A DNA stretch of 32,000 nucleotides, from positions 1,830,001-1,862,000 of the forward strand of contig NZ_AP028907.1 of NCBI RefSeq assembly GCF_036323395.1, given 5' to 3'. A program made the position numbers and the translations under genes. The DNA is from Pyrodictium abyssi (GTDB lineage: Archaea > Thermoproteota > Thermoprotei_A > Sulfolobales > Pyrodictiaceae). Positions 2,087-32,000 of this stretch are shown piece by piece (the first letter of the stretch is position 1; every line of letters starts with the position of its first letter). The notes beneath the pieces are model-generated. The model was given only the letters and a program-made list of their open reading frames with translations. It was not told the DNA's origin and did no database searches.

Positions 2087-2341
2087 CTATTCACCTGTAG
2101 CTTCGACCGCTTCGAATGTCGCTGCCGCTAGGCTAAGATAAGCGTTTATCAAGGTCCGGGCTGATGAGGGGTCGCGCGCGTCAATGCATATCGACAGAGT
2201 ATCCTTCTCCGCGTGGACCTCTACGCGCCCCCTCCGGGGGTCCGGCGGGTTACGCGCCTCAGTCTCAAGAGCCCTTGCCAGCGCCCGAGCTAGCTTCTCG
2301 GAGAGGCCCTTTAGCCTTATGCAGCCGGAGACCCGCGTCAT
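2087..2341 (-). CDS. pcc1: KEOPS complex subunit Pcc1
   Basis: 84-aa ORF. LSEKLARALARALETEA...VEVHAEKDTLSICIDARDPSSARTLINAYLSLAAATFE matches the Pcc1/CTAG fold pattern. It holds the conserved position between Brix and prefoldin beta. ATG start at 2341 overlaps the Brix 3' end. Confidence 0.75.
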   Translation of the reverse strand: MTRVSGCIRLKGLSEKLARALARALETEARNPPDPRRGRVEVHAEKDTLSICIDARDPSSARTLINAYLSLAAATFEAVEATGE

Positions 2342-2915
2342 AGTCCACTACACCTGCTATACGTAGTAGCGGGCCGCAGACTCTGCCCGTGCTACAGCGG
2401 AACTCCACCTCAGCGATAGAGCTCCTCCCCTTATCAAGGACAGCGACCACGTCGAACCGGTCAAGAGCCTCGCCGTAGTCTATAGCTATGCTTGCAAGCA
2501 GGGTCCTGGCGAGTATATCCGCGAGACGATGAAGCTCGTCGCCGGCTGCCGGCGGCACGTATACGCCAAGGCTCTGGGCTCCATAGGCCCGCTGCGCGCC
2601 CGGCGTCTCGCGGGAGAGCCGTACACCCTCCAGCATTATACGCGCCATGAGCCTCAGCTCTAGACTAGGGGGCTCAAGAGGCTCATAGACATGCAGTGTA
2701 CCGGGATTACCCTTCCACACCGACACCACTATCACGCGCTGTGCCCCACGCGCTACTGCCTCGTAGTACAGGTCGCGTAGCGTAGCCTTGCCGCGTGTCA
2801 GCTTTTCTGCGCCCGGCAGAACTGATACCAGGTCCTTAACGAAGCTCCTAACACGCTGCGTGGGCCTATGGGATGTCGTCACTATTATGCGGGTCCTCCT
2901 AGCCGCGGCAGGCAA
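2265..2915 (-). CDS. Brix-domain ribosome biogenesis protein (Imp4-like)
   Basis: 216-aa ORF. RIIVTTSHRPTQRVRSFVKDLVSVLPGAEKLTRGKATLRDLYYEA...VIVVSVWKGNPG is a typical archaeal Brix domain. Apparent TTG start. Confidence 0.85.
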   Translation of the reverse strand: MPAAARRTRIIVTTSHRPTQRVRSFVKDLVSVLPGAEKLTRGKATLRDLYYEAVARGAQRVIVVSVWKGNPGTLHVYEPLEPPSLELRLMARIMLEGVRLSRETPGAQRAYGAQSLGVYVPPAAGDELHRLADILARTLLASIAIDYGEALDRFDVVAVLDKGRSSIAEVEFRCSTGRVCGPLLRIAGVVDYDAGLRLHKAKGPLREASSGAGKGS

Positions 2916-3093: not shown

Positions 3094-3360
3094 CTAGTCT
3101 TCGCGTATGACTACCTTTGGGAAGTTCTTGTTCAGCCCTGTCCTGGGTACGTAGGCGCCGCCAGCCCACGTCGAGCCGCACTTCGTACACGTCCATAGGC
3201 CTACACTTATCCTCTTCACGTGGCCCTTTACGCCGCAGAACGGGCACATGTGGTCTGCGTAGCGACGCTCCATTACGTCTCTCCAGCGCTTTCTCAGCGT
3301 GGAGCCGTAGCGCGGACCAAACCTGCCAGCTATGCCTACTGTGCGTGTGCGCCTCGCCAT
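3094..3360 (-). CDS. rpl37ae: 50S ribosomal protein L37Ae (eL43)
   Basis: 88 aa. MARRTRTVGIAGRFGPRYGSTLRKR..., with zinc ribbon CPFCG...CTKCG. Confidence 0.97.
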   Translation of the reverse strand: MARRTRTVGIAGRFGPRYGSTLRKRWRDVMERRYADHMCPFCGVKGHVKRISVGLWTCTKCGSTWAGGAYVPRTGLNKNFPKVVIRED

Positions 3361-3437
3361 TACCGTGCTCCCCCGCAGCGCATAACAGGTAGAGCCTAGG
3401 TTATAAGAAGTATTGTCCGCCGACGCTTCCGGCCGCG

Positions 3438-4430
3438 CTACTCCCCGGAGCCTTCTCCGCCGCTCTGCCCCTCTTCGTCGGCCACTTCGGCTATCTCGAC
3501 TGATTCCTCGTGCTCCCTGTGGGGCGCTGGCTGCAGCTCTGCCGCCCCTTCGGCTGCCTCCTCGGTTTTCTCTGTCCTTAGCTCCTCCTCCATCTTTGCG
3601 CGGTATGGTAGTACCATGTCTTCAAGCGCCTTGTGGTATATACTAGCCTTGTTGACAGCTATAGCCACAGCTGATAGTACTTCGCGGTACTCTAGGTCGC
3701 CCATACCGGTCTTCTGGATGCCCGCTATCCGGCCGTCATCGCTGACTGCCACGACCATTCTCGTATCTGCTACCTGCTCTTCCTCGTAGGTCGGGTCTAC
3801 TACGAGCTTTCCAGCTATCTTCGCAAGGGTTACGGTGACTACGCGGCGATTCACCGGGACTACTCTGGTGAACCTACTACGGTCGACCCGGTACCCGTCC
3901 TCGGTCTTAACGGCTACTGGCAGCCTAGCTGATAGGAGGGCAGCCATAGCCGCCAGCATGGATGCATCGAAGAGGTTACCGTCATGGTTAAGCACGTATA
4001 TGTCCACGAATAGGCGCCACACGTGCTTACCGGGCTCCAGGACAAGCTGGTCTAGTGCTACAGCCTTTATCTCGCGAAGGCTCCTATCTATCACGCGTGC
4101 CAGCTCTATAGCGTTCTCGTCCGGTGGGCCGGGCTCGAAGGTAGGCGAGGCCAGTGGCACGAACTCTGCGTGGACTACGAGTACACCCTCGTTAGGCGTA
4201 TCGGGGAATGGGGCCACTATGTCGGTCTTAACACCCGCCAGCACAATAGTCTGCCCTAGTCTGACTAGTGCTGAGCCCTCGGCGCGCTCTATGTAGCCGG
4301 GCACTATCTCTATCTTTCTTACCTCGTCTAGCTTCCGGCCATCTAGCCGGACACCACGCGATAGTAGCGTCTCCATAGTGTAGCGCTTTAGCTTCGGCAC
4401 CACAGGCTGGAATGAGGGCGTAATGCTCAC
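3438..4430 (-). CDS. rrp42: Exosome complex component Rrp42 (RNase PH-like, inactive subunit) with acidic C-terminal tail
   Basis: 330 aa with an RNase PH fold pattern ([39 protein letters not shown]...). GTG start overlaps the rrp41 stop (GTGA at 4427-4430). The last ~55 aa are Glu-rich and low-complexity. Confidence 0.92.
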
Positions 4431-24200: not shown

Positions 24201-24944
24201 ATGGTGCGCGAGGCGGTCGCCCACGTTCTCTCTAAGGTGCGCGGCATAGACCCTAAGAGGCTGCTCTCGGGGGTACCACCACGCGCGGTACTAGCTGCTT
24301 TCTATGCTGCAGAGCTTTGCAGGCTTGAGAACTGTAGCGAAGAGACGGCTGCCATAGCCGCCCTAGTTTACAGCCATAACCAGGCAGACAGTGTACTTGA
24401 CAAGGCTCCACAGCACATCGTGCACCACGTACGTAAGGTGCTAGAGGAGGCTGAATACGCTCATCTACGTTCGCCTTCATCCCAATACACTATGGTTGTG
24501 CTTGACGCCGACGTGCTAGCACGTATAGGCGCATTGTCGCTTTTCAACAGGTTTACAGAGTACCAGGCGTCGATAGCAGATATGCTCCAGGCTGCACTGG
24601 ATATACTGAGTTATGCCGTGGCATCCGACTATATACTGTATACACACTCTGCCAAGAAGCTGGCTAGCCGCATGAAGCCGCATACTATAGCGTACTTTAA
24701 CTGGCTTGTAGAGGAGCTGGCGAGCCTAGGTATAAAGGCTAGACTACGTACTGAGACCACAGTGGGCGGCGTCATATCCTACGTTGACCTACTATCTTGC
24801 CCGTGTGGCGATACTATTGTCAAGGAGAAGGCTGTGAAGCCCGCTGAGAAGTGTATGCGCTACATTCTACGCTATACGTGTAGAAGCTGCGGTCTAGATG
24901 TAGAGGCTACAACATGCATCCCGGAATCGACAAGGACGAGATAG
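24201..24944 (+). CDS. Hypothetical protein: degenerate HD-domain-like region plus C-terminal Cys4 zinc ribbon
   Basis: 247 aa with an ATG start. AIAALVYSHNQAD has HN where HD-domain proteins have HD. VVLDADVLARIGAL resembles the distal HD-domain Asp motif. The C-terminus has CPCG...x26...CRSCG. Confidence 0.6.
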   Translation: MVREAVAHVLSKVRGIDPKRLLSGVPPRAVLAAFYAAELCRLENCSEETAAIAALVYSHNQADSVLDKAPQHIVHHVRKVLEEAEYAHLRSPSSQYTMVVLDADVLARIGALSLFNRFTEYQASIADMLQAALDILSYAVASDYILYTHSAKKLASRMKPHTIAYFNWLVEELASLGIKARLRTETTVGGVISYVDLLSCPCGDTIVKEKAVKPAEKCMRYILRYTCRSCGLDVEATTCIPESTRTR

Positions 24945-25554: not shown

Positions 25555-27330
25555 TTACTCGTGAGCAAATATCATTACGACCTTCCTCGCCGAGCCGTCT
25601 TCTACCTCTACTGCGTCTACTCTCGCAAACCCTGTACGCACTAGCTGCACTATGTCTCCTTGCTTTAGCTCTGCCGCTGCGTACTCTACTACACCACGAC
25701 GCTGAATTAGGTCTAGGCCTTCGGGCACGAGGAGTTCTATATGTAGTGCTGTGTCCGCGGGTACCCACTGTATTATCGGTGCCTTATGTCTACGTGCTTC
25801 CTCGAGGCCAAGACTGTGGAATCTCGCTATTATCTTGTCGTTCTTGACGTCTACCACTTCTATGTTGAACGCCTCCATAAGCCTTATGACACTACCCTTT
25901 TTCATTAGCTTTCTATCGCTCTGGGATACGTATACTGTCGCTGTTGGACCTTCTAGTGTTATCCTCCTCGAGCCTAGCTTCCCCGACGGGTGGTAAGGTA
26001 TCTCGAACTCACGCTTCTCCCAAGGAAGCTCTTCTATCACCACTGGCGCCGGCGGTATAGCAGCCATTATTCTACGTGCTACTGGGTCTACGATGACACG
26101 GTTAGTAGCAGCTAGGTTAGCATAGCTTATACTTGCGTCAGTATACTTAGTGCCGACCTCTAGTATTAGCTTCCGTATAGCCTCGGCCGTTATACCGCGC
26201 CTCCTTAGACCCGCTATCGTGGCAAACCGTGGATCATCTATACCAGTGCTGACGCCCTGGTCGAGGAGCTGTTTTAGCGCAGACTTGCTCATTATGAAGC
26301 CTTCGAGCTTCAAGCGCCCAAAGTGCACGACATGCGGATACTTCCACCCCATGTACTCGTATACATACTTCTGCTTTGTCGTGTTCTGCATATGCTCCTT
26401 GGCGCGGAGTATGTGTGTTACACCCATCAACCAGTCGTCGACACCAGCTGCGAAGTTGTATGTAGGCCAGACGATGTAGCGATCGCCGACAAGTGGGTGC
26501 GGGTAGCGGCTTGTATCGATTATACGGAAAGCTACCCAGTCTCGGACGCTTGGGTCGGGGTGGTTAGGGTCAGTCTTTATCCTGACGACTGCCTCGCCTT
26601 CTGCGAAGCGGCCTTCGAGCATTCGGTCCCACATTTCTAGGTTTTCCTCGGGTGTACGTAGCCTGGACGGGTACTCGGAGAGCTTGCCAGAGTTGCGGTA
26701 TTTTCTGAACTCTTCGCCTGGCCTATCGTCTACATAGGCATGGCCTTTCTCTAGAAGCTCCTTTATTATTTGGTAGTATATCGGCATGCGTAGGCTTTGT
26801 ATGTACTCTTCATCCCAGCGGATGCCTAGCCACTCTAGGTCCTGTTTTATCAGCTCATATGCCTCGGGTAGCGGCGTCTTGGTGCGAGGGTCAGTGTCCT
26901 CAAAGCGAAGTATCATCCTCCCCTTGTACATTACCTTGTACTCGTAGCTGAGTATTGCTGGTCTCGCGTTGCCAAGGTGTATCACGAAGTCAGGGTTTGG
27001 CGCGAAGCGTGTGACAACCTTGCCTTCCTCTGCCCCGGGGAGTGGGGGCAGCGTCTTCTCCTGCTCTTTGGGCTTGCTGAGCTTCTCTAGTATCCAGCTA
27101 TACTTCTCCTCGAGTAGCCTCTTCTGCTCGTCTAGAGAGAGCCTATTTACCTCAGCTACGGCTTCACGTACTATCGCCACTATCTCGCGAGCATAGGGTC
27201 TCAGCTCTGGTTTTTCAGCCATAATCTTGCCCATCACCGGGCCTACTGCAGCGCTTCCACTATGCTCGACAGCGTTGACGAGAGCATACGCCTTTGCTAG
27301 CTCGCGTAGCTCGTCAGGATTGTATTTCAA
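25555..27330 (-). CDS. gltX: Glutamyl-tRNA synthetase (archaeal/eukaryal type)
   Basis: 591 aa. Class I motifs HLGNARPAILSY (HIGH-like) and FIMSKSAL (KMSKS). Apparent TTG start overlaps the upstream gene by 17 nt. Confidence 0.93.
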   Translation of the reverse strand: MKYNPDELRELAKAYALVNAVEHSGSAAVGPVMGKIMAEKPELRPYAREIVAIVREAVAEVNRLSLDEQKRLLEEKYSWILEKLSKPKEQEKTLPPLPGAEEGKVVTRFAPNPDFVIHLGNARPAILSYEYKVMYKGRMILRFEDTDPRTKTPLPEAYELIKQDLEWLGIRWDEEYIQSLRMPIYYQIIKELLEKGHAYVDDRPGEEFRKYRNSGKLSEYPSRLRTPEENLEMWDRMLEGRFAEGEAVVRIKTDPNHPDPSVRDWVAFRIIDTSRYPHPLVGDRYIVWPTYNFAAGVDDWLMGVTHILRAKEHMQNTTKQKYVYEYMGWKYPHVVHFGRLKLEGFIMSKSALKQLLDQGVSTGIDDPRFATIAGLRRRGITAEAIRKLILEVGTKYTDASISYANLAATNRVIVDPVARRIMAAIPPAPVVIEELPWEKREFEIPYHPSGKLGSRRITLEGPTATVYVSQSDRKLMKKGSVIRLMEAFNIEVVDVKNDKIIARFHSLGLEEARRHKAPIIQWVPADTALHIELLVPEGLDLIQRRGVVEYAAAELKQGDIVQLVRTGFARVDAVEVEDGSARKVVMIFAHE

Positions 27331-27877
27331 TCTCCTTTACCACCTCCTCTGGCGCCACCAGGACTATGTTCCTATCCGGCCCGGATTCAGGCGAGGAATA
27401 GATGTAAACTATAATGCCTTCCACATGGCTTCTGATGTGGCGTACCTCGAACTTCCTTGTTGCGACGAATCCCAGTGTATCCTCGACGCCTACTTTACTG
27501 CCCTCGCATACTTCTAGGGCTACACGCATACCTTCAAGAGGTATTGGCTCCAGGTAGCTGCCGGCTTCTACGAGGAGGCCCCTCTTATACTCCGGCGGGA
27601 GCACCACTATGAAGCTCCTTGTACACCTCTTAGCGACTATGTCCACTATGCTATCGAGCTCGACGCCGTATATCGCCTTACCAAAACACCGCAGACCATG
27701 AGGACACGTTTCAGCGCGCCTTGCCTTATTGTCTTCTAGTACTAGGTACTCGTCCGATTCTAGCCCTTCTATGAACAACTGGGGGATTAGGTAGGGCGAC
27801 TTGTGGCATTCCGGTGTCTGCTCCGTCACGTCTACGCTACCTCGTACGGGAGACCGCGAACCTGGCGAGTTCTTCAA
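27314..27877 (-). CDS. Hypothetical protein, C-terminal barrel-sandwich (biotinyl/lipoyl-like, DUF2118-like) domain
   Basis: 187-aa ORF. The C-terminal EVCEGSKVGVEDTLGFVATRKFEVRHIRSHVEGIIVYI resembles the hybrid-barrel motif. The longest ORF overlaps idsA by 41 nt; GTG 27829, 7 nt after the idsA stop codon, is a likelier start. The family call is tentative. Confidence 0.55.
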   Translation of the reverse strand: MKNSPGSRSPVRGSVDVTEQTPECHKSPYLIPQLFIEGLESDEYLVLEDNKARRAETCPHGLRCFGKAIYGVELDSIVDIVAKRCTRSFIVVLPPEYKRGLLVEAGSYLEPIPLEGMRVALEVCEGSKVGVEDTLGFVATRKFEVRHIRSHVEGIIVYIYSSPESGPDRNIVLVAPEEVVKEIEIQS

Positions 27878-28847
27878 GCATTTCTCTATACTCGCTTTCG
27901 GGGAGCACCTTTAGCGCTGCTAGTGCCTGCTCGCTGTAGCGGCGTGCAAGCTCCTCAGCGTATTCTATGGCCCCACTCTCCTTGATTAGTCTGGCTGCCT
28001 CCTCTATCTCCTCTCTGCCCGCGTCACGGTTACCAAGGACTTTTTCGAGCTTCTCCCGGGCTTCGCCTTCGAGTCTGCCTAGAGCGTAGAGTATTGGTAG
28101 TGTCTTCTTCCCCTCTCTTATGTCGCTTCCTACGGGCTTGCCTAGCTCCTCTTCCTTGCCCATTATACCTAGTATATCATCGCGTATCTGGAAAGCTATA
28201 CCAAGGCTCTTACCATAGCTCGCTAGCGAAGATAGTATGTTCTCATCGTCTGTGGCTACTAGCCCGCCGAGGACTGCTGATGCCTCGAACAAGGCCCCAG
28301 TCTTCTTGTATATCATTTTAAGGTAATCCTCTATGTCTACGTACTCCTCTTCTTCAAACATCATGTCCATTGCTTGGCCCTCAGCTATTATCGATGACGC
28401 TCTTGCTAGTACACGTACCGCCCTGGCCACTCTTTCGGCTGGCACGCCTTTGTCGCGTGCATCGGTTAGGGCTTCGAAGGCCTTAGCGTAGAGCAGGTCA
28501 CCTGCTGTTATCGCTAGGGGCTCGCCCCATAGCTTGTGGACTGTGGGTACTCCACGGCGGAACTCATCACGATCCATTATGTCGTCGTGTACCAGGGTGA
28601 AGTTGTGGACGAGTTCTACAGCTACCGCGAAGGGTAGTGCCTTTTCGGCTTCCTCTCCAAGAGCTTCCGCTGTCGCTACTACTATCACGGGACGGAGCCT
28701 TTTACCACCAGCTCTTATGAGGTGGAGAGCAGCGTTGTACAGCTCCTCGGGCTCGCCGTGGACCCGCGCGTATATGTAGCCGTCTACAAGCCCTGCTACC
28801 TTTGTTATGTAGTTTCGTAGCCTCTCGGAGAGCTGAGCCAAGTCCAT
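27837..28847 (-). CDS. idsA: Geranylgeranyl diphosphate synthase (trans-prenyltransferase)
   Basis: 336 aa. First Asp-rich motif LVHDDIMDRD, second Asp-rich motif FQIRDDILG, plus GKRLRP. Confidence 0.93.
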   Translation of the reverse strand: MDLAQLSERLRNYITKVAGLVDGYIYARVHGEPEELYNAALHLIRAGGKRLRPVIVVATAEALGEEAEKALPFAVAVELVHNFTLVHDDIMDRDEFRRGVPTVHKLWGEPLAITAGDLLYAKAFEALTDARDKGVPAERVARAVRVLARASSIIAEGQAMDMMFEEEEYVDIEDYLKMIYKKTGALFEASAVLGGLVATDDENILSSLASYGKSLGIAFQIRDDILGIMGKEEELGKPVGSDIREGKKTLPILYALGRLEGEAREKLEKVLGNRDAGREEIEEAARLIKESGAIEYAEELARRYSEQALAALKVLPESEYREMLEELARFAVSRTR

Positions 28848-28878: not shown

Positions 28879-30018
28879 CTACACAGGTGAGCAGCCGCTA
28901 CCAGGCTTGAATAGGACTCGGGGGCCATTAAGATATAGCTCGGGCTCTACTCCCCGAGCCTTCATGATGCTTAGTAGCCGGTGCCCTAGCACTATATCAG
29001 CGCCGCGTAGCTCTGCAAGGCTGCCAGAGCCAGATAGGAACATGGCTATACGGAGCTCAGTCACTAGTCTCTCTAGGAGCGCGCGAATAGCCTCTTCACC
29101 GCCACGTGCATACGCGTTAATCACGGGGAGCGCGACTCCGGCTATATCTGCCCCTAGGGCTATAGCCTTAGCTACATCGAGCCCGGAGCGTACGCCACCA
29201 CTAGCTATTATACAGGCATCTGGAGCCGCCCATCTAGCCTCTACTACCGCCTGGGCAGTCGGTATCCCCGTACTAGAGAACGTTGATGCAGCAGTGGCTA
29301 GCATCTCGTTGCCTTTAGCCCTAGCCCTGTACTGTTCTACTCTTATCCAGCTCGTGCCGCCAGCACCTGCCACATCTATGATTCTGACACCCGCTGCTCG
29401 CAGAAGTCTGGCCGCTTCCAGGCCTATACCATGGCCGGTCTCCTTGACTATTACAGGCTTCTCTATGGCGCTCGCTACATCTCTTATCCTCTCTATTACT
29501 CCGGCGTAGTCTGTGTCACCCTCTGGCTGGAAAGCCTCCTGTGCCGCGTTAAGGTGGATTGCTACAGCGTCAGCGCCTATCATTTCTACGGCCTTTCTTA
29601 TCTCCTCAATGCCGTATCCCTTGACAAGCTGTGGCGCGCCTATATTAGCTATTATAACAGCCGACGGCGCACACTTGCGTGCAACCGAGAATGTGTAAGA
29701 GAGGCTTGGATTCTCTAGGGCTGCTCTCTGGCTGCCGACACCCATTGCGAGTCCTAGCTCCTCGACCGCTTTAGCTATGGCGCAGTTTATCTTAGCCGCT
29801 ACAGCGTGACCCCCCGTCATACCAGTGACCATTATTGGCGCTGACAGTTTCTTGCCGAGAAACTCTATGCTGGCATCTACGCCGTTTAGAGACACCTCGG
29901 GGAGCGCTTTGTAGACCAGGGTTACGTCCTCAAACAGCGTGCTGGCACCGTCGTGGGACACATTACTGTCTATTGTTATCCTTATGTGGTCAAGTTTTCT
30001 AGGTGACGTAAGCGTCAA
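28879..30018 (-). CDS. fni: Isopentenyl-diphosphate delta-isomerase, type 2 (FMN-dependent)
   Basis: 379 aa. RKLDHIRI..., MVTGMTGG, VIVKETGHGI, DVAGAGGTSW and ASGGVRSGLDVAKAIALGA are typical IDI-2 TIM-barrel motifs. Confidence 0.93.
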   Translation of the reverse strand: MTLTSPRKLDHIRITIDSNVSHDGASTLFEDVTLVYKALPEVSLNGVDASIEFLGKKLSAPIMVTGMTGGHAVAAKINCAIAKAVEELGLAMGVGSQRAALENPSLSYTFSVARKCAPSAVIIANIGAPQLVKGYGIEEIRKAVEMIGADAVAIHLNAAQEAFQPEGDTDYAGVIERIRDVASAIEKPVIVKETGHGIGLEAARLLRAAGVRIIDVAGAGGTSWIRVEQYRARAKGNEMLATAASTFSSTGIPTAQAVVEARWAAPDACIIASGGVRSGLDVAKAIALGADIAGVALPVINAYARGGEEAIRALLERLVTELRIAMFLSGSGSLAELRGADIVLGHRLLSIMKARGVEPELYLNGPRVLFKPGSGCSPV

Positions 30019-30096: not shown

Positions 30097-30921
30097 CTAA
30101 AGTATAATACGTGTCCCGCTACCATGCCCCATTAACGCTGCGTAGGTATTCCCTTCACGCAGCCCATTTGTCACTAGGATTTCTCTTAGAGTAAGGCATC
30201 GATTAGCCCTTATTGCGTCAAGCTTCCTCTTTATACCACCAGTTACGTCTATCTTGCTACCCGTCTTCTGCTGCTCCACTATGCTGCTCTCCTCCAGCTC
30301 GTCCACATGGATCTCGTCTATCACCTTTCCATCAGCGTCAATTACACCATCTACATCCGTTACATAGACGACTAGAGGGCTGCCAAGACTGCAAGCCATT
30401 TCTATTGCCAACTCGTCACCGGATACTATGCACCAACTTTCCCCACACGCATAGACATCGCCATAGACTAGCGGTGTGACGCCCACCTTCATGTCGCGGA
30501 GAACGCTATTCCAGTTGCATCTGGGCACTAGCCCGTCAGGGTCGCAGAAGCTGTGCGGCGGGTATACTACTGGCTTTACCCCCTTAGACGCGAGTATATC
30601 CGCCATAGCGAGCACTAGCTCGAACATATACATTGTTACTAGCGTGAGCGCGTCTGCCGGTGGAGCGTCCAGCATACGCGCGCTAGAAGCAGCCACGTGA
30701 CCGTAGCTACCACCTCCAAGTACTATGCCTACCTTGATGCCGTTGCTTACTGCAGCCGCTATTTCTCCGGCTATACGGTTAGCTATAGCGTAGTTTAGCT
30801 TAAACGTTCTTTTGTCCGTTATTACGCTGCCTCCAATCTTTATAACACGAACTCCAGGGTATCGCCCAGCCCTGCTCCGGGTTTGCATATCCCGTATACC
30901 CTCTGAAGTGATGGTGTCCAC
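30097..30921 (-). CDS. ipk: Isopentenyl phosphate kinase (amino-acid-kinase fold)
   Basis: VRVIKIGGSVITDK, VLGGGSYGH and VSGDELAIEMA. The longest ORF starts at GTG 30921; ATG 30888 (MQTRSR...) is likelier. Either start overlaps the upstream gene. Confidence 0.88.
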   Translation of the reverse strand: MDTITSEGIRDMQTRSRAGRYPGVRVIKIGGSVITDKRTFKLNYAIANRIAGEIAAAVSNGIKVGIVLGGGSYGHVAASSARMLDAPPADALTLVTMYMFELVLAMADILASKGVKPVVYPPHSFCDPDGLVPRCNWNSVLRDMKVGVTPLVYGDVYACGESWCIVSGDELAIEMACSLGSPLVVYVTDVDGVIDADGKVIDEIHVDELEESSIVEQQKTGSKIDVTGGIKRKLDAIRANRCLTLREILVTNGLREGNTYAALMGHGSGTRIIL

Positions 30922-31700
30922 TTACACTCTGCGCGGGGTGTCTCAGCACCGTAGAGGAGGTAGAATACAGCATTGTCTACCCGCTGTACTAGTCTGAATA
31001 CCTCTGCTTCTCCTTCTCTTAGCCGTTTCACGGCCTCTACCACTGCTAGCCCACTCAGCCTTGTAAGCGCCGAGAAGAGGGGTTCTTCTAGTGCCTCTGC
31101 CGCCTCTTCTCCTATGTCCTCTTCTCCGACGAGCTCGAGTTCCAGCCTTATACCGGTACTTAGCTCTATGAGTTCTTCACCCTTCCTGTATACTATACTC
31201 TTGCCGAGCATAACGGCTTCACGGAGCCCATCTATGTAGTCCAGGCCTACGCCTGCCTCCGCGTCAATACTGCTAGCAGAGTCTAGCACTTCTCGCTGGT
31301 CTAGCTCGTAGCCTGCTGCATCGGCTATGCTCTTGACTAGCGCTAGTGTTGTCGCTGCATAGACCGAGGCAGCCGGGGGATATGATACGGGTTCGCCGAC
31401 ATTCACGGTGATATTGACTTTTATGGGCTGCTCAAGCCTTGCAGATAGTGTGTCTACAAAAGACTTCACCGCCAGGTCATAGCGCCATCCAAGCCTAACG
31501 CCATCTATTCTCGTGGTGGTCGTCTCGCTCTCTTCAACGTCAACATCTATTGACACAACCGGGTTAGGTGTCAAGAGTATTATGTAGGGGTTGGTTCTGC
31601 CCGGTAGCGGCACGCCCGCAAATACTATTGCTAGTGGAAACTCGTACAATGCTAGCCTCACACCCCGGTGCCGCAGGGCATGAATGCCACGTAGGCGCAA
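30840..31700 (-). CDS. Divergent GHMP-kinase-fold protein with degenerate phosphate-binding motif II
   Basis: 286 aa. The GHMP layout is recognisable: IKVNITVNVGEPVSYPPAASVYAATTLALVKSIADAAGYEL lies where PxGSGLGSSAA is expected, and the C-terminal KPGAGLGDT lies where motif III (K/T-GAGGGG) is expected. No mevalonate-kinase motif I (GKxILxGEHxVV). TTG 31700 or GTG 31661 start. Confidence 0.65.
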   Translation of the reverse strand: MRLRGIHALRHRGVRLALYEFPLAIVFAGVPLPGRTNPYIILLTPNPVVSIDVDVEESETTTTRIDGVRLGWRYDLAVKSFVDTLSARLEQPIKVNITVNVGEPVSYPPAASVYAATTLALVKSIADAAGYELDQREVLDSASSIDAEAGVGLDYIDGLREAVMLGKSIVYRKGEELIELSTGIRLELELVGEEDIGEEAAEALEEPLFSALTRLSGLAVVEAVKRLREGEAEVFRLVQRVDNAVFYLLYGAETPRAECKWTPSLQRVYGICKPGAGLGDTLEFVL

Positions 31701-31721: not shown

Positions 31722-32000
31722 CTAGTATACCTGTATAGATGCATAGCCCACTACACTGCTCTTATCTCCGGCTACATCGCCGCTTGTCGCGTATCTGAGG
31801 AGTTTAGCACTGCTAGCTCCCGCTCCGCGGGCGTAGTAGAGCATCGCCATTACTGGGCCCGGTCCGCACATGCTTATACTGTGCTTCTGTATAGTCTGGT
31901 AGAGTTTCAGAGGGTCCAGCTCTAGTATAGCCTCAATAGCCAGCTTGTCTTTAGCTACTGCTACGTCGTGGGGCTCGTAGTGTGTAAAGTCGCTGCTAGC
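31722..32000 (-). CDS. Memo-like protein (AmmeMemoRadiSam system protein B / COG1355), C-terminal part; 5' end outside window
   Basis: I translated this frame manually (not in the ORF track). It is open from the window edge to TAG 31722-31724: ...HSISMCGPGPVMAMLYYARGAGASSAKLLRYATSGDVAGDKSSVVGYASIQVY*. The CG..P...LL.Y..SGD..GD...VVGYAS pattern is the hallmark Memo/UPF0103 C-terminus. Confidence 0.7.
   Translation of the reverse strand, partial: ASSDFTHYEPHDVAVAKDKLAIEAILELDPLKLYQTIQKHSISMCGPGPVMAMLYYARGAGASSAKLLRYATSGDVAGDKSSVVGYASIQVY

Follow-up and report, generated by a model that had tools for sequence, protein, structure and literature searches.

What occupies the place of mevalonate kinase (MVK) when the motifs of that enzyme are gone? 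The question is raised by a 32,000 nt stretch of the Pyrodictium abyssi genome (GCF_036323395.1, NZ_AP028907.1, positions 1,830,001-1,862,000 of the forward strand; hereafter the window), in which an open reading frame (ORF) on the minus strand, 30840..31700, lies directly upstream of ipk, the gene for isopentenyl phosphate kinase (IPK). We call the encoded protein X, a working name that also serves for its family. The explanation we favour, to which we give a probability of roughly 55%, is that X is a catalytically inactive pseudokinase derived from MVK: the descendant, in the original slot, of the ancestral archaeal enzyme, now with an accessory role tied to IPK. As the kinase motifs are lost while the protein is strongly conserved and a normal MVK exists elsewhere in relatives, X is most likely a non-catalytic partner in the pathway.

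The membrane lipids of archaea depend wholly on the mevalonate pathway, and its lower archaeal part was reportedly settled only in 2018, in Aeropyrum pernix, a relative of the organisms that carry X.

Fold and ancestry

The initial annotation had recognised a GHMP architecture in X. Sequence models give no indication of it, as X has no Pfam or NCBIfam match at E<=1, and PDB sequences yielded no usable match either to X itself (phmmer) or to a profile of its close relatives. Because X is invisible to such models, the GHMP claim was tested by structure. An AlphaFold2 (AF2) model built on 31 homologues (predicted local distance difference test score, pLDDT, 92; predicted template modelling score, pTM, 0.90) was compared with the PDB by Foldseek, and every one of the best 50 of 168 matches at E<=1e-3 is a GHMP-fold protein, with template modelling (TM) scores of 0.45-0.63. 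The top matches are MVKs (S. aureus 2x7i, E 9e-10; L. major 2hfs, TM 0.63; M. mazei 4hac), followed by PMK, IspE and mevalonate decarboxylases. The GHMP fold consists of two domains, the N-terminal one rich in beta-strands and containing a left-handed beta-alpha-beta unit, the C-terminal one of alpha/beta type, and at the level of the fold X is a GHMP protein.

Comparison of family profiles narrows the ancestry. An alignment of 61 X members, from which all residue counts given below are also taken, was compared by hhalign with an alignment of 15 MVKs from the slot upstream of ipk, the latter validated against PDB MVKs with E-values down to 5e-79; the probability of homology was 97.3% (E 2.6e-11). 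A global hhalign comparison of the X family with an MVK alignment headed by the M. mazei enzyme, which also provided the mapping of motifs to residues, gave 97.8% over 258 columns. When the broad X family profile was compared with the PDB, its GHMP matches were MVKs only (2x7i, E 7e-4; 1kkh, 0.056), and a hidden Markov model (HMM) of the family matches slot MVKs at 1e-5 to 1e-10. By profile comparison, X is a descendant of MVK. Standard searches show little of this relationship: 4 of 61 members match Pfam GHMP_kinases_N, all below threshold, and BLASTP with M. mazei or A. pernix MVK found no significant match to X (best E 0.33). A control MVK from the slot (L062) matches PF00288 at 1e-14 and PF08544 at 2e-14, whereas X stays below the thresholds of the curated MVK models.

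The names given to X homologues in public databases conflict, with ‘Pantoate kinase’ in UniRef for the P. occultum and H. butylicus proteins, ‘mevalonate kinase’ in one JGI record and ‘hypothetical protein’ at NCBI, and none is backed by a curated model. Pantoate kinase, the enzyme of archaeal coenzyme A (CoA) synthesis (COG1829), is also a GHMP-fold protein, and the UniRef name would fit such an identity. We rejected it as barely conceivable, as no NCBIfam or Pfam model matches, the profile matches within the GHMP proteins are MVKs only, the GHMP phosphate loop is missing from X, and at every locus examined the genes in the vicinity belong to isoprenoid and not to CoA synthesis.

The former active site

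The fate of each kinase motif can be followed in the hhalign mapping and the column counts. Motif I, reported as absent in the initial annotation, is indeed gone: in its remnant (residues 22-39, PLAIVFAGVPLPGRTNPY; 31584..31637, minus strand) the APGKxxLFGEH of MVK aligns with FPLAIVFAGVP. The position of the Lys is taken by P, A or S and never by K, that of the Glu by V, L or I, and that of the His by Pro in 57/61 members. The same stretch carries a new family signature, GxPxPxxxNP, with P31 in 57/61, N37 in 60/61 and P38 in 61/61.

Replacement of motif II, the phosphate-binding loop, had been placed at 31341-31400, and the remnant falls within this interval (residues 102-118, GEPVSYPPAASVYAATT; 31347..31397, minus strand). 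Its segment SYPPAASVYAA has the same length as PxGSGLGSSAA and can be aligned with it column for column without a deletion, all glycines and serines being replaced. The family pattern is x-x-[GS]-[LVI]-Y, where Y114, present in 59/61 members, stands at the position of the second Ser.

In the remnant of the catalytic loop (residues 143-160, SSIDAEAGVGLDYIDGLR; 31221..31274, minus strand), D146 corresponds to the Mg-binding Glu and is acidic in 60/61 members. D157 occupies the position of the catalytic Asp, which is conserved in MVK (D138 in M. mazei, D204 in human; PMC6283576), and is D or E in only 36/61. Just past this position, in a 2-residue insertion, lies R160, which is invariant in the family. 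It is followed by a strand with the pattern YRxGEE (residues 171-176; 31173..31190, minus strand), the first residue of which, 171, is aromatic in all 61 members, with R172 next to it in 60/61. In the hhalign alignment this strand corresponds to the beta-strand of L. major MVK that binds the mevalonate carboxylate, held there by Tyr167 and Arg169 (PMC6283576).

For motif III the initial annotation had to be revised. The C-terminal KPGAGLGDT which it had taken for this motif lies in a tail that is not conserved, just one Gly being invariant among close relatives, and was rejected for that reason. The true equivalent is CKWTPSLQRV (residues 259-268; 30897..30926, minus strand), aligned with AKxTGAGGGG, where the glycine run is lost and K260 and T262 are retained in the Pyrodictiaceae clade only. 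Further conserved residues of the family are E175 and G217. A cysteine pair, C259/C272 (CxWxPx8C; 30885-30926 in the window), is found in 30/61 members. It lies on the hairpin that has taken the place of the glycine-rich motif, where it could form a disulfide staple or bind a metal.

The most conserved columns of X fall in these former active-site elements, and N37, P38, Y114, R160 and R172 line the former cleft. Judged by its residues, the cleft would resemble an anion-binding pocket and not a nucleotide site. X keeps the two-domain GHMP fold around a cleft that is conserved but remodelled: an acidic side chain still stands where the Mg-Glu was, together with a pair of invariant arginines, an invariant Tyr and the Tyr/Arg strand, whereas the glycine-rich phosphate loop, the catalytic Lys and a conserved catalytic Asp are missing.

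Clustering of the conserved residues in the old cleft could also be explained if X were an enzyme that works without ATP, its cleft rebuilt (R160, R172, Y114, D146, N37) so as to catalyse another reaction, with a phosphorylated or carboxylated intermediate of isoprenoid synthesis as the substrate. Mevalonate 3,5-bisphosphate decarboxylase, which belongs to the GHMP proteins and works without ATP (PMC9254496), provides a precedent. However, an enzyme would be expected to have more than the roughly seven invariant positions of the X family, and the site of the catalytic Asp does not consistently carry an acidic residue. We return to this possibility below, after the evidence on selection and on the remaining enzymes of the pathway.

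Chromosomal slot, selection and the separate mevalonate kinase

X belongs to a broad family and is not a single odd gene. Word-indexed searching brought up 30 close relatives, among them those from P. occultum (77% identity) and Hyperthermus butylicus (60%), and when it was repeated with the broad family alignment it mostly gave these relatives again; an exhaustive profile search of 1.84 billion representative sequences found 108 clusters, all of ~200-290 aa. The family ranges over Pyrodictiaceae, Acidilobaceae, Desulfurococcaceae and Ignisphaera; its named members, such as ASAC_0903 of Acidilobus saccharovorans and proteins from Caldisphaera and from Desulfurococcaceae/‘Sulfolobales’ metagenome-assembled genomes (MAGs), are labelled ‘hypothetical’.

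The chromosomal position of X is strictly kept. Six contexts were picked independently of IPK, including members at only 21-31% identity and one at E 8e-6, and all six have the order S13-S4-S11-RpoD-L18e-L13-S9-RpoN-S2-Memo-X-IPK, followed by IDI2-GGPPS-DUF2118-GluRS wherever the contig reaches that far. Conservation beside ipk in the Desulfurococcales, which the initial annotation had proposed to survey, holds for every member examined. In addition, 80 IPK loci from species-representative genomes were surveyed, the gene upstream of IPK being assigned with separate HMMs of X and of canonical MVK. The expectation that MVK lies directly upstream of ipk in many archaea was borne out, with a canonical MVK (PxGAGLGSSA) in the slot at 22/80 loci (Nitrososphaerales, Bathyarchaeia, Jordarchaeales, Hydrothermarchaeales, Culexmicrobium) and X at 26/80 (Pyrodictiaceae, Acidilobaceae, Desulfurococcales, Thermodiscus, Calypsonella and, more divergent, Ignisphaera). 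Memo is found upstream of both kinds, and the two occur together in the slot at none of the 80 loci. As X and canonical MVK are mutually exclusive between Memo and IPK, X holds the ancestral position of MVK.

Some loci show variations of this slot. The divergent X of Ignisphaera (L031 3125-3970; L042 3109-3948; L056 3114-3959) matches the family HMM at E 1e-18 to 1e-9 and differs in some otherwise invariant residues (N37 to S, YR to AR). Between Memo and IPK, one MAG of Marsarchaeota and one of Thermoprotei (L037 and L041, both 3276-3986) have a 237-aa ORF that lacks a Pfam match and is only weakly similar to X in its C-terminal part (E ~3e-5), perhaps a relic of MVK in which erosion has gone further still. 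At Hadesarchaea/Hadarchaeota loci (L039 3144-3980; L047 3072-3986; L073 3142-3978), Memo adjoins IPK with neither MVK nor X between them.

X is under strong purifying selection, as strong as that on IPK and IDI2. Against the nearest relative (92% aa identity), the ratio of nonsynonymous to synonymous substitution rates (dN/dS) is 0.14 for X, 0.145 for IPK and 0.136 for IDI2, and against P. occultum that of X is 0.07. X shares 78% aa identity with its P. occultum counterpart, compared with 62% for IPK. The loss of all kinase motifs might suggest a decaying relic without function, an explanation effectively refuted by the dN/dS values of 0.07-0.14, which do not exceed those of the neighbouring enzymes. 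An intact reading frame in >100 clusters, the invariant family-specific residues and the conserved overlap with ipk described below likewise speak against decay, which we consider scarcely plausible.

Several genomes with X possess a canonical MVK at another position. A search was made with an approximate A. pernix MVK (its 96% identical match is named ‘mevalonate kinase [Aeropyrum pernix]’), and among the best 120 of 1403 hits are canonical PF00288+PF08544 MVKs from Acidilobus saccharovorans, Caldisphaera and many Acidilobaceae/Desulfurococcales MAGs. The members of the clusters of two further MVK hits bear only the names Aeropyrum, Acidilobus and ‘Desulfurococcales/Thermoprotei archaeon’. 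A. saccharovorans has both X (ASAC_0903) and a named MVK; on scaffold JAWAWX010000001.1 a canonical MVK lies ~116 kb from the X-IPK pair; and the MAGs WWDU01 (Ca. Calypsonella navitae) and WANR01 each carry both proteins. JAWAWX, WWDU01, WANR01 and A. pernix share a second conserved MVK locus, SFM1-Alba-hyp-PterinBD_DUF4346-MVK-TFB. In Acidilobaceae and Desulfurococcales (loci L087 8001-8984; L089 9001-9975; L090-L092; L098-L101) the canonical MVK always comes right after the PterinBD-DUF4346 gene of 490-515 aa, with overlapping stop and start codons, and is followed by TFB; the PterinBD-DUF4346 partner is not known to be linked to isoprenoids.

The presence of a canonical MVK elsewhere, for which the initial annotation had suggested a check, is hence established for A. 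saccharovorans and three MAGs, and for Pyrodictiaceae it is given by a published table only. This table scores H. butylicus as MVK=1, IPK=1, IDI2=1, AcnX1/2=1 and AMPD=1, and Thermosphaera is likewise positive for MVK, AcnX1, AcnX2, AMPD, IPK and IDI2 (PMC11052028 Table S5). The MVK scored in H. butylicus is presumably not X, because X fails the BLASTP criteria of that survey (E<1e-15, >70% coverage); a BLASTP comparison gave E=40. Indirect evidence thus points the same way for the Pyrodictiaceae, namely to a separate canonical MVK, and the published table shows no known step of the archaeal pathway to be vacant in H. butylicus. Of the features expected of a pseudoenzyme, X shows homology to an enzyme, loss of catalytic residues and purifying selection; a paralogue of the active type is present in Acidilobaceae/Desulfurococcales genomes and is indicated indirectly, via the same table, for Pyrodictiaceae.

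These data bear on the two readings offered in the initial annotation. The first, an extremely divergent kinase, would mean that X is still the MVK, at least in Pyrodictiaceae, and operates with a non-canonical nucleotide/phosphate site. In its favour X sits in the exact slot of MVK, the Pyrodictiaceae clade retains K260/T262, D146, D154 and D157, no canonical MVK from Pyrodictiaceae is found among the best 120 of 1403 hits, and one JGI record uses this name. However, the Lys, Glu and His of motif I and the entire glycine/serine P-loop are gone, at least four genomes or MAGs carry a canonical MVK in addition to a member of the X family, and the MVK of H. butylicus is reported as detectable by BLAST while X is not. 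We therefore disfavour a divergent kinase and regard it as quite improbable. The second reading, loss of ATP binding combined with another role, fits the motif loss, the selection and the coexisting MVKs.

Another role could still be an enzymatic one. The strong purifying selection and the embedding of X in an operon with IPK, IDI2 and GGPPS would both suit an ATP-independent enzyme, but as judged from H. butylicus and Thermosphaera (PMC11052028) every step of the archaeal pathway already has its enzyme. Together with the small number of invariant positions, this makes an ATP-independent reaction unlikely in our judgement.

Operon, proposed role and relation to known systems

The ORF reported in the initial annotation is real, and its start has been moved. 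As listed it has 286 aa, counted from TTG 31700; homologues begin with MYEFPLA and an SD (Shine-Dalgarno)-like GTGAGG precedes TTG 31649, for which reasons we place the true start at TTG 31649 (269 aa) or GTG 31661, giving a length of ~269-273 aa. Combining the ORF list with the homologue-based start, the fold and the MVK homology, we assign the coding sequence of this MVK-derived GHMP-fold protein to 30840..31649 (minus strand), with the stop codon at 30840-30842. IPK (30097..30888, minus strand; NF040647 at 1.4e-39, above the cut-off; PF00696) most likely starts at the conserved ATG 30888, as in P. occultum. X, with its 3' end, and ipk, with its 5' end, consequently share 49 nt out of frame (30840..30888, minus strand), in agreement with the overlap initially described, and an identical overlap exists in P. 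occultum (L001) and in another Pyrodictiaceae MAG (L007). Across 30 loci, the two genes mostly overlap (<=49 nt) or lie within ~35 nt, while gaps of 85-182 nt occur at 4 loci. To judge from this arrangement, the overlap indicates translational coupling.

All genes of the array are on the minus strand and tightly packed in the order Memo-like, X, IPK, IDI2, GGPPS, DUF2118, GluRS. The Memo-like gene (31725..32000), located 72 nt upstream of X and represented by its 3' end as it is cut by the window edge, is 98% identical to the C-terminus of Memo (PF01875) at locus L094. Downstream of ipk follow the type 2 IPP isomerase IDI2 (28879..30018; TIGR02151, 1.5e-120) and geranylgeranyl diphosphate synthase, GGPPS (27837..28847; PF00348, 4.5e-79), for which the NF041003 match (3e-111) is below the curated cut-off of the model (371.6 vs 500 bits). 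The DUF2118 gene (27314-27877) overlaps GGPPS by 41 nt and that of glutamyl-tRNA synthetase, GluRS (25555-27330), by 17 nt (ORF-finder coordinates), so that the isoprenoid genes continue into a translation gene as one tight array, and this isoprenoid-DUF2118-GluRS order is common to all related loci. Two further ORFs of the window, 24201-24944 (plus strand, 247 aa) and 2265-2915 (minus strand, 216 aa), are without a Pfam match. The former recurs at the same position in P. occultum (L001, L002) and at L094, where an ORF of 247-261 aa without annotation lies between L7Ae and S28e on the opposite strand.

We propose that X is the original copy in the Memo-MVK-IPK-IDI2 slot and would have been relieved of its catalytic duty when another copy of MVK had become available; mevalonate would then be phosphorylated by the separate canonical MVK at the DUF4346-MVK-TFB locus. 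Through the overlapping genes X would be synthesised stoichiometrically with IPK, and it is for this reason that a non-catalytic job appears most likely. X may bind an anionic intermediate of the mevalonate pathway, and/or it may assist IPK, and possibly Memo or MVK as well, in the manner of an accessory, regulatory or scaffolding subunit.

Several observations weigh against such a pseudokinase. An acidic residue is retained at the Mg-Glu position in 60/61 members, and in the Pyrodictiaceae clade motif III still has K260/T262, with D154/D157 preserved as well; in view of these residues, some phosphoryl-transfer chemistry of unusual architecture is conceivable. Homoserine kinase is a GHMP kinase that works without a catalytic base. 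Overlapping genes imply co-expression and not a physical interaction between X and IPK. Finally, no canonical MVK from Pyrodictium, Hyperthermus or Pyrolobus is among the best 120 of 1403 hits.

A more far-reaching proposition, doubtful at present, would make X indispensable to the lower archaeal mevalonate pathway of hyperthermophilic Desulfurococcales-type archaea, as a component that is either non-catalytic or independent of ATP. If it is true, X could bind mevalonate 5-phosphate, trans-anhydromevalonate 5-phosphate or isopentenyl phosphate and pass the ligand to IPK within a heat-protective metabolon, or alternatively be a subunit that alters the specificity or regulation of IPK, and the mevalonate pathway as now drawn would miss a conserved player in a Desulfurococcales-type order. 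Annotations are corrected, because the gene beside ipk in these genomes is most likely not the MVK. X is also a testable candidate for regulating or channelling isoprenoid precursors at ~100 °C, and is possibly relevant to engineered ‘archaeal’ mevalonate pathways. In the searchable literature we found no description of the X family, of an archaeal MVK-derived GHMP pseudokinase or of a Hyperthermus/Pyrodictium MVK.

Among known proteins, MVK itself (EC 2.7.1.36; PF00288 + PF08544, TIGR00549) shares with X the two-domain GHMP fold, homology at the level of profiles (97-98% probability) and the slot between Memo and IPK-IDI2; X also retains the Tyr/Phe-Arg strand and an acidic side chain where MVK has its Mg-Glu. 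X differs in being ~50 residues shorter, in having the residues of motifs I-III and the conserved catalytic Asp replaced, in being invisible to Pfam, NCBIfam and BLASTP, and in coexisting with a true MVK. Mevalonate 3,5-bisphosphate decarboxylase of the Thermoplasma-type pathway resembles X in its GHMP fold and in belonging to a mevalonate pathway, and it does not use ATP (PMC9254496). However, it is of the MVD branch and fills a step with a demonstrated reaction, while X is of the MVK branch and finds no vacant step. Pantoate kinase is an archaeal GHMP-fold protein of similar length, from which X is set apart by the lack of a model match and of a phosphate loop and by its isoprenoid context.

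GHMP-fold proteins without kinase activity are already known in eukaryotes, namely the galactose sensor Gal3p of yeast and the developmental regulator XOL-1 of C. elegans, and Gal3 chains are among the GHMP relatives found when slot MVKs were compared with the PDB. Like X, these proteins derive from GHMP kinases and have kept the fold while activity was lost, as would be the case for X; Gal3p has in addition kept ligand binding for a non-catalytic role. They differ from X in being eukaryotic, in their galactokinase-like ancestry and in acting in transcription or development, and Gal3p keeps its ATP site. X, in contrast, is archaeal and MVK-derived, forms part of a metabolic operon and no longer has the ATP loop, and it would add a prokaryotic, metabolic-operon case to this short list of GHMP-fold proteins without kinase activity.

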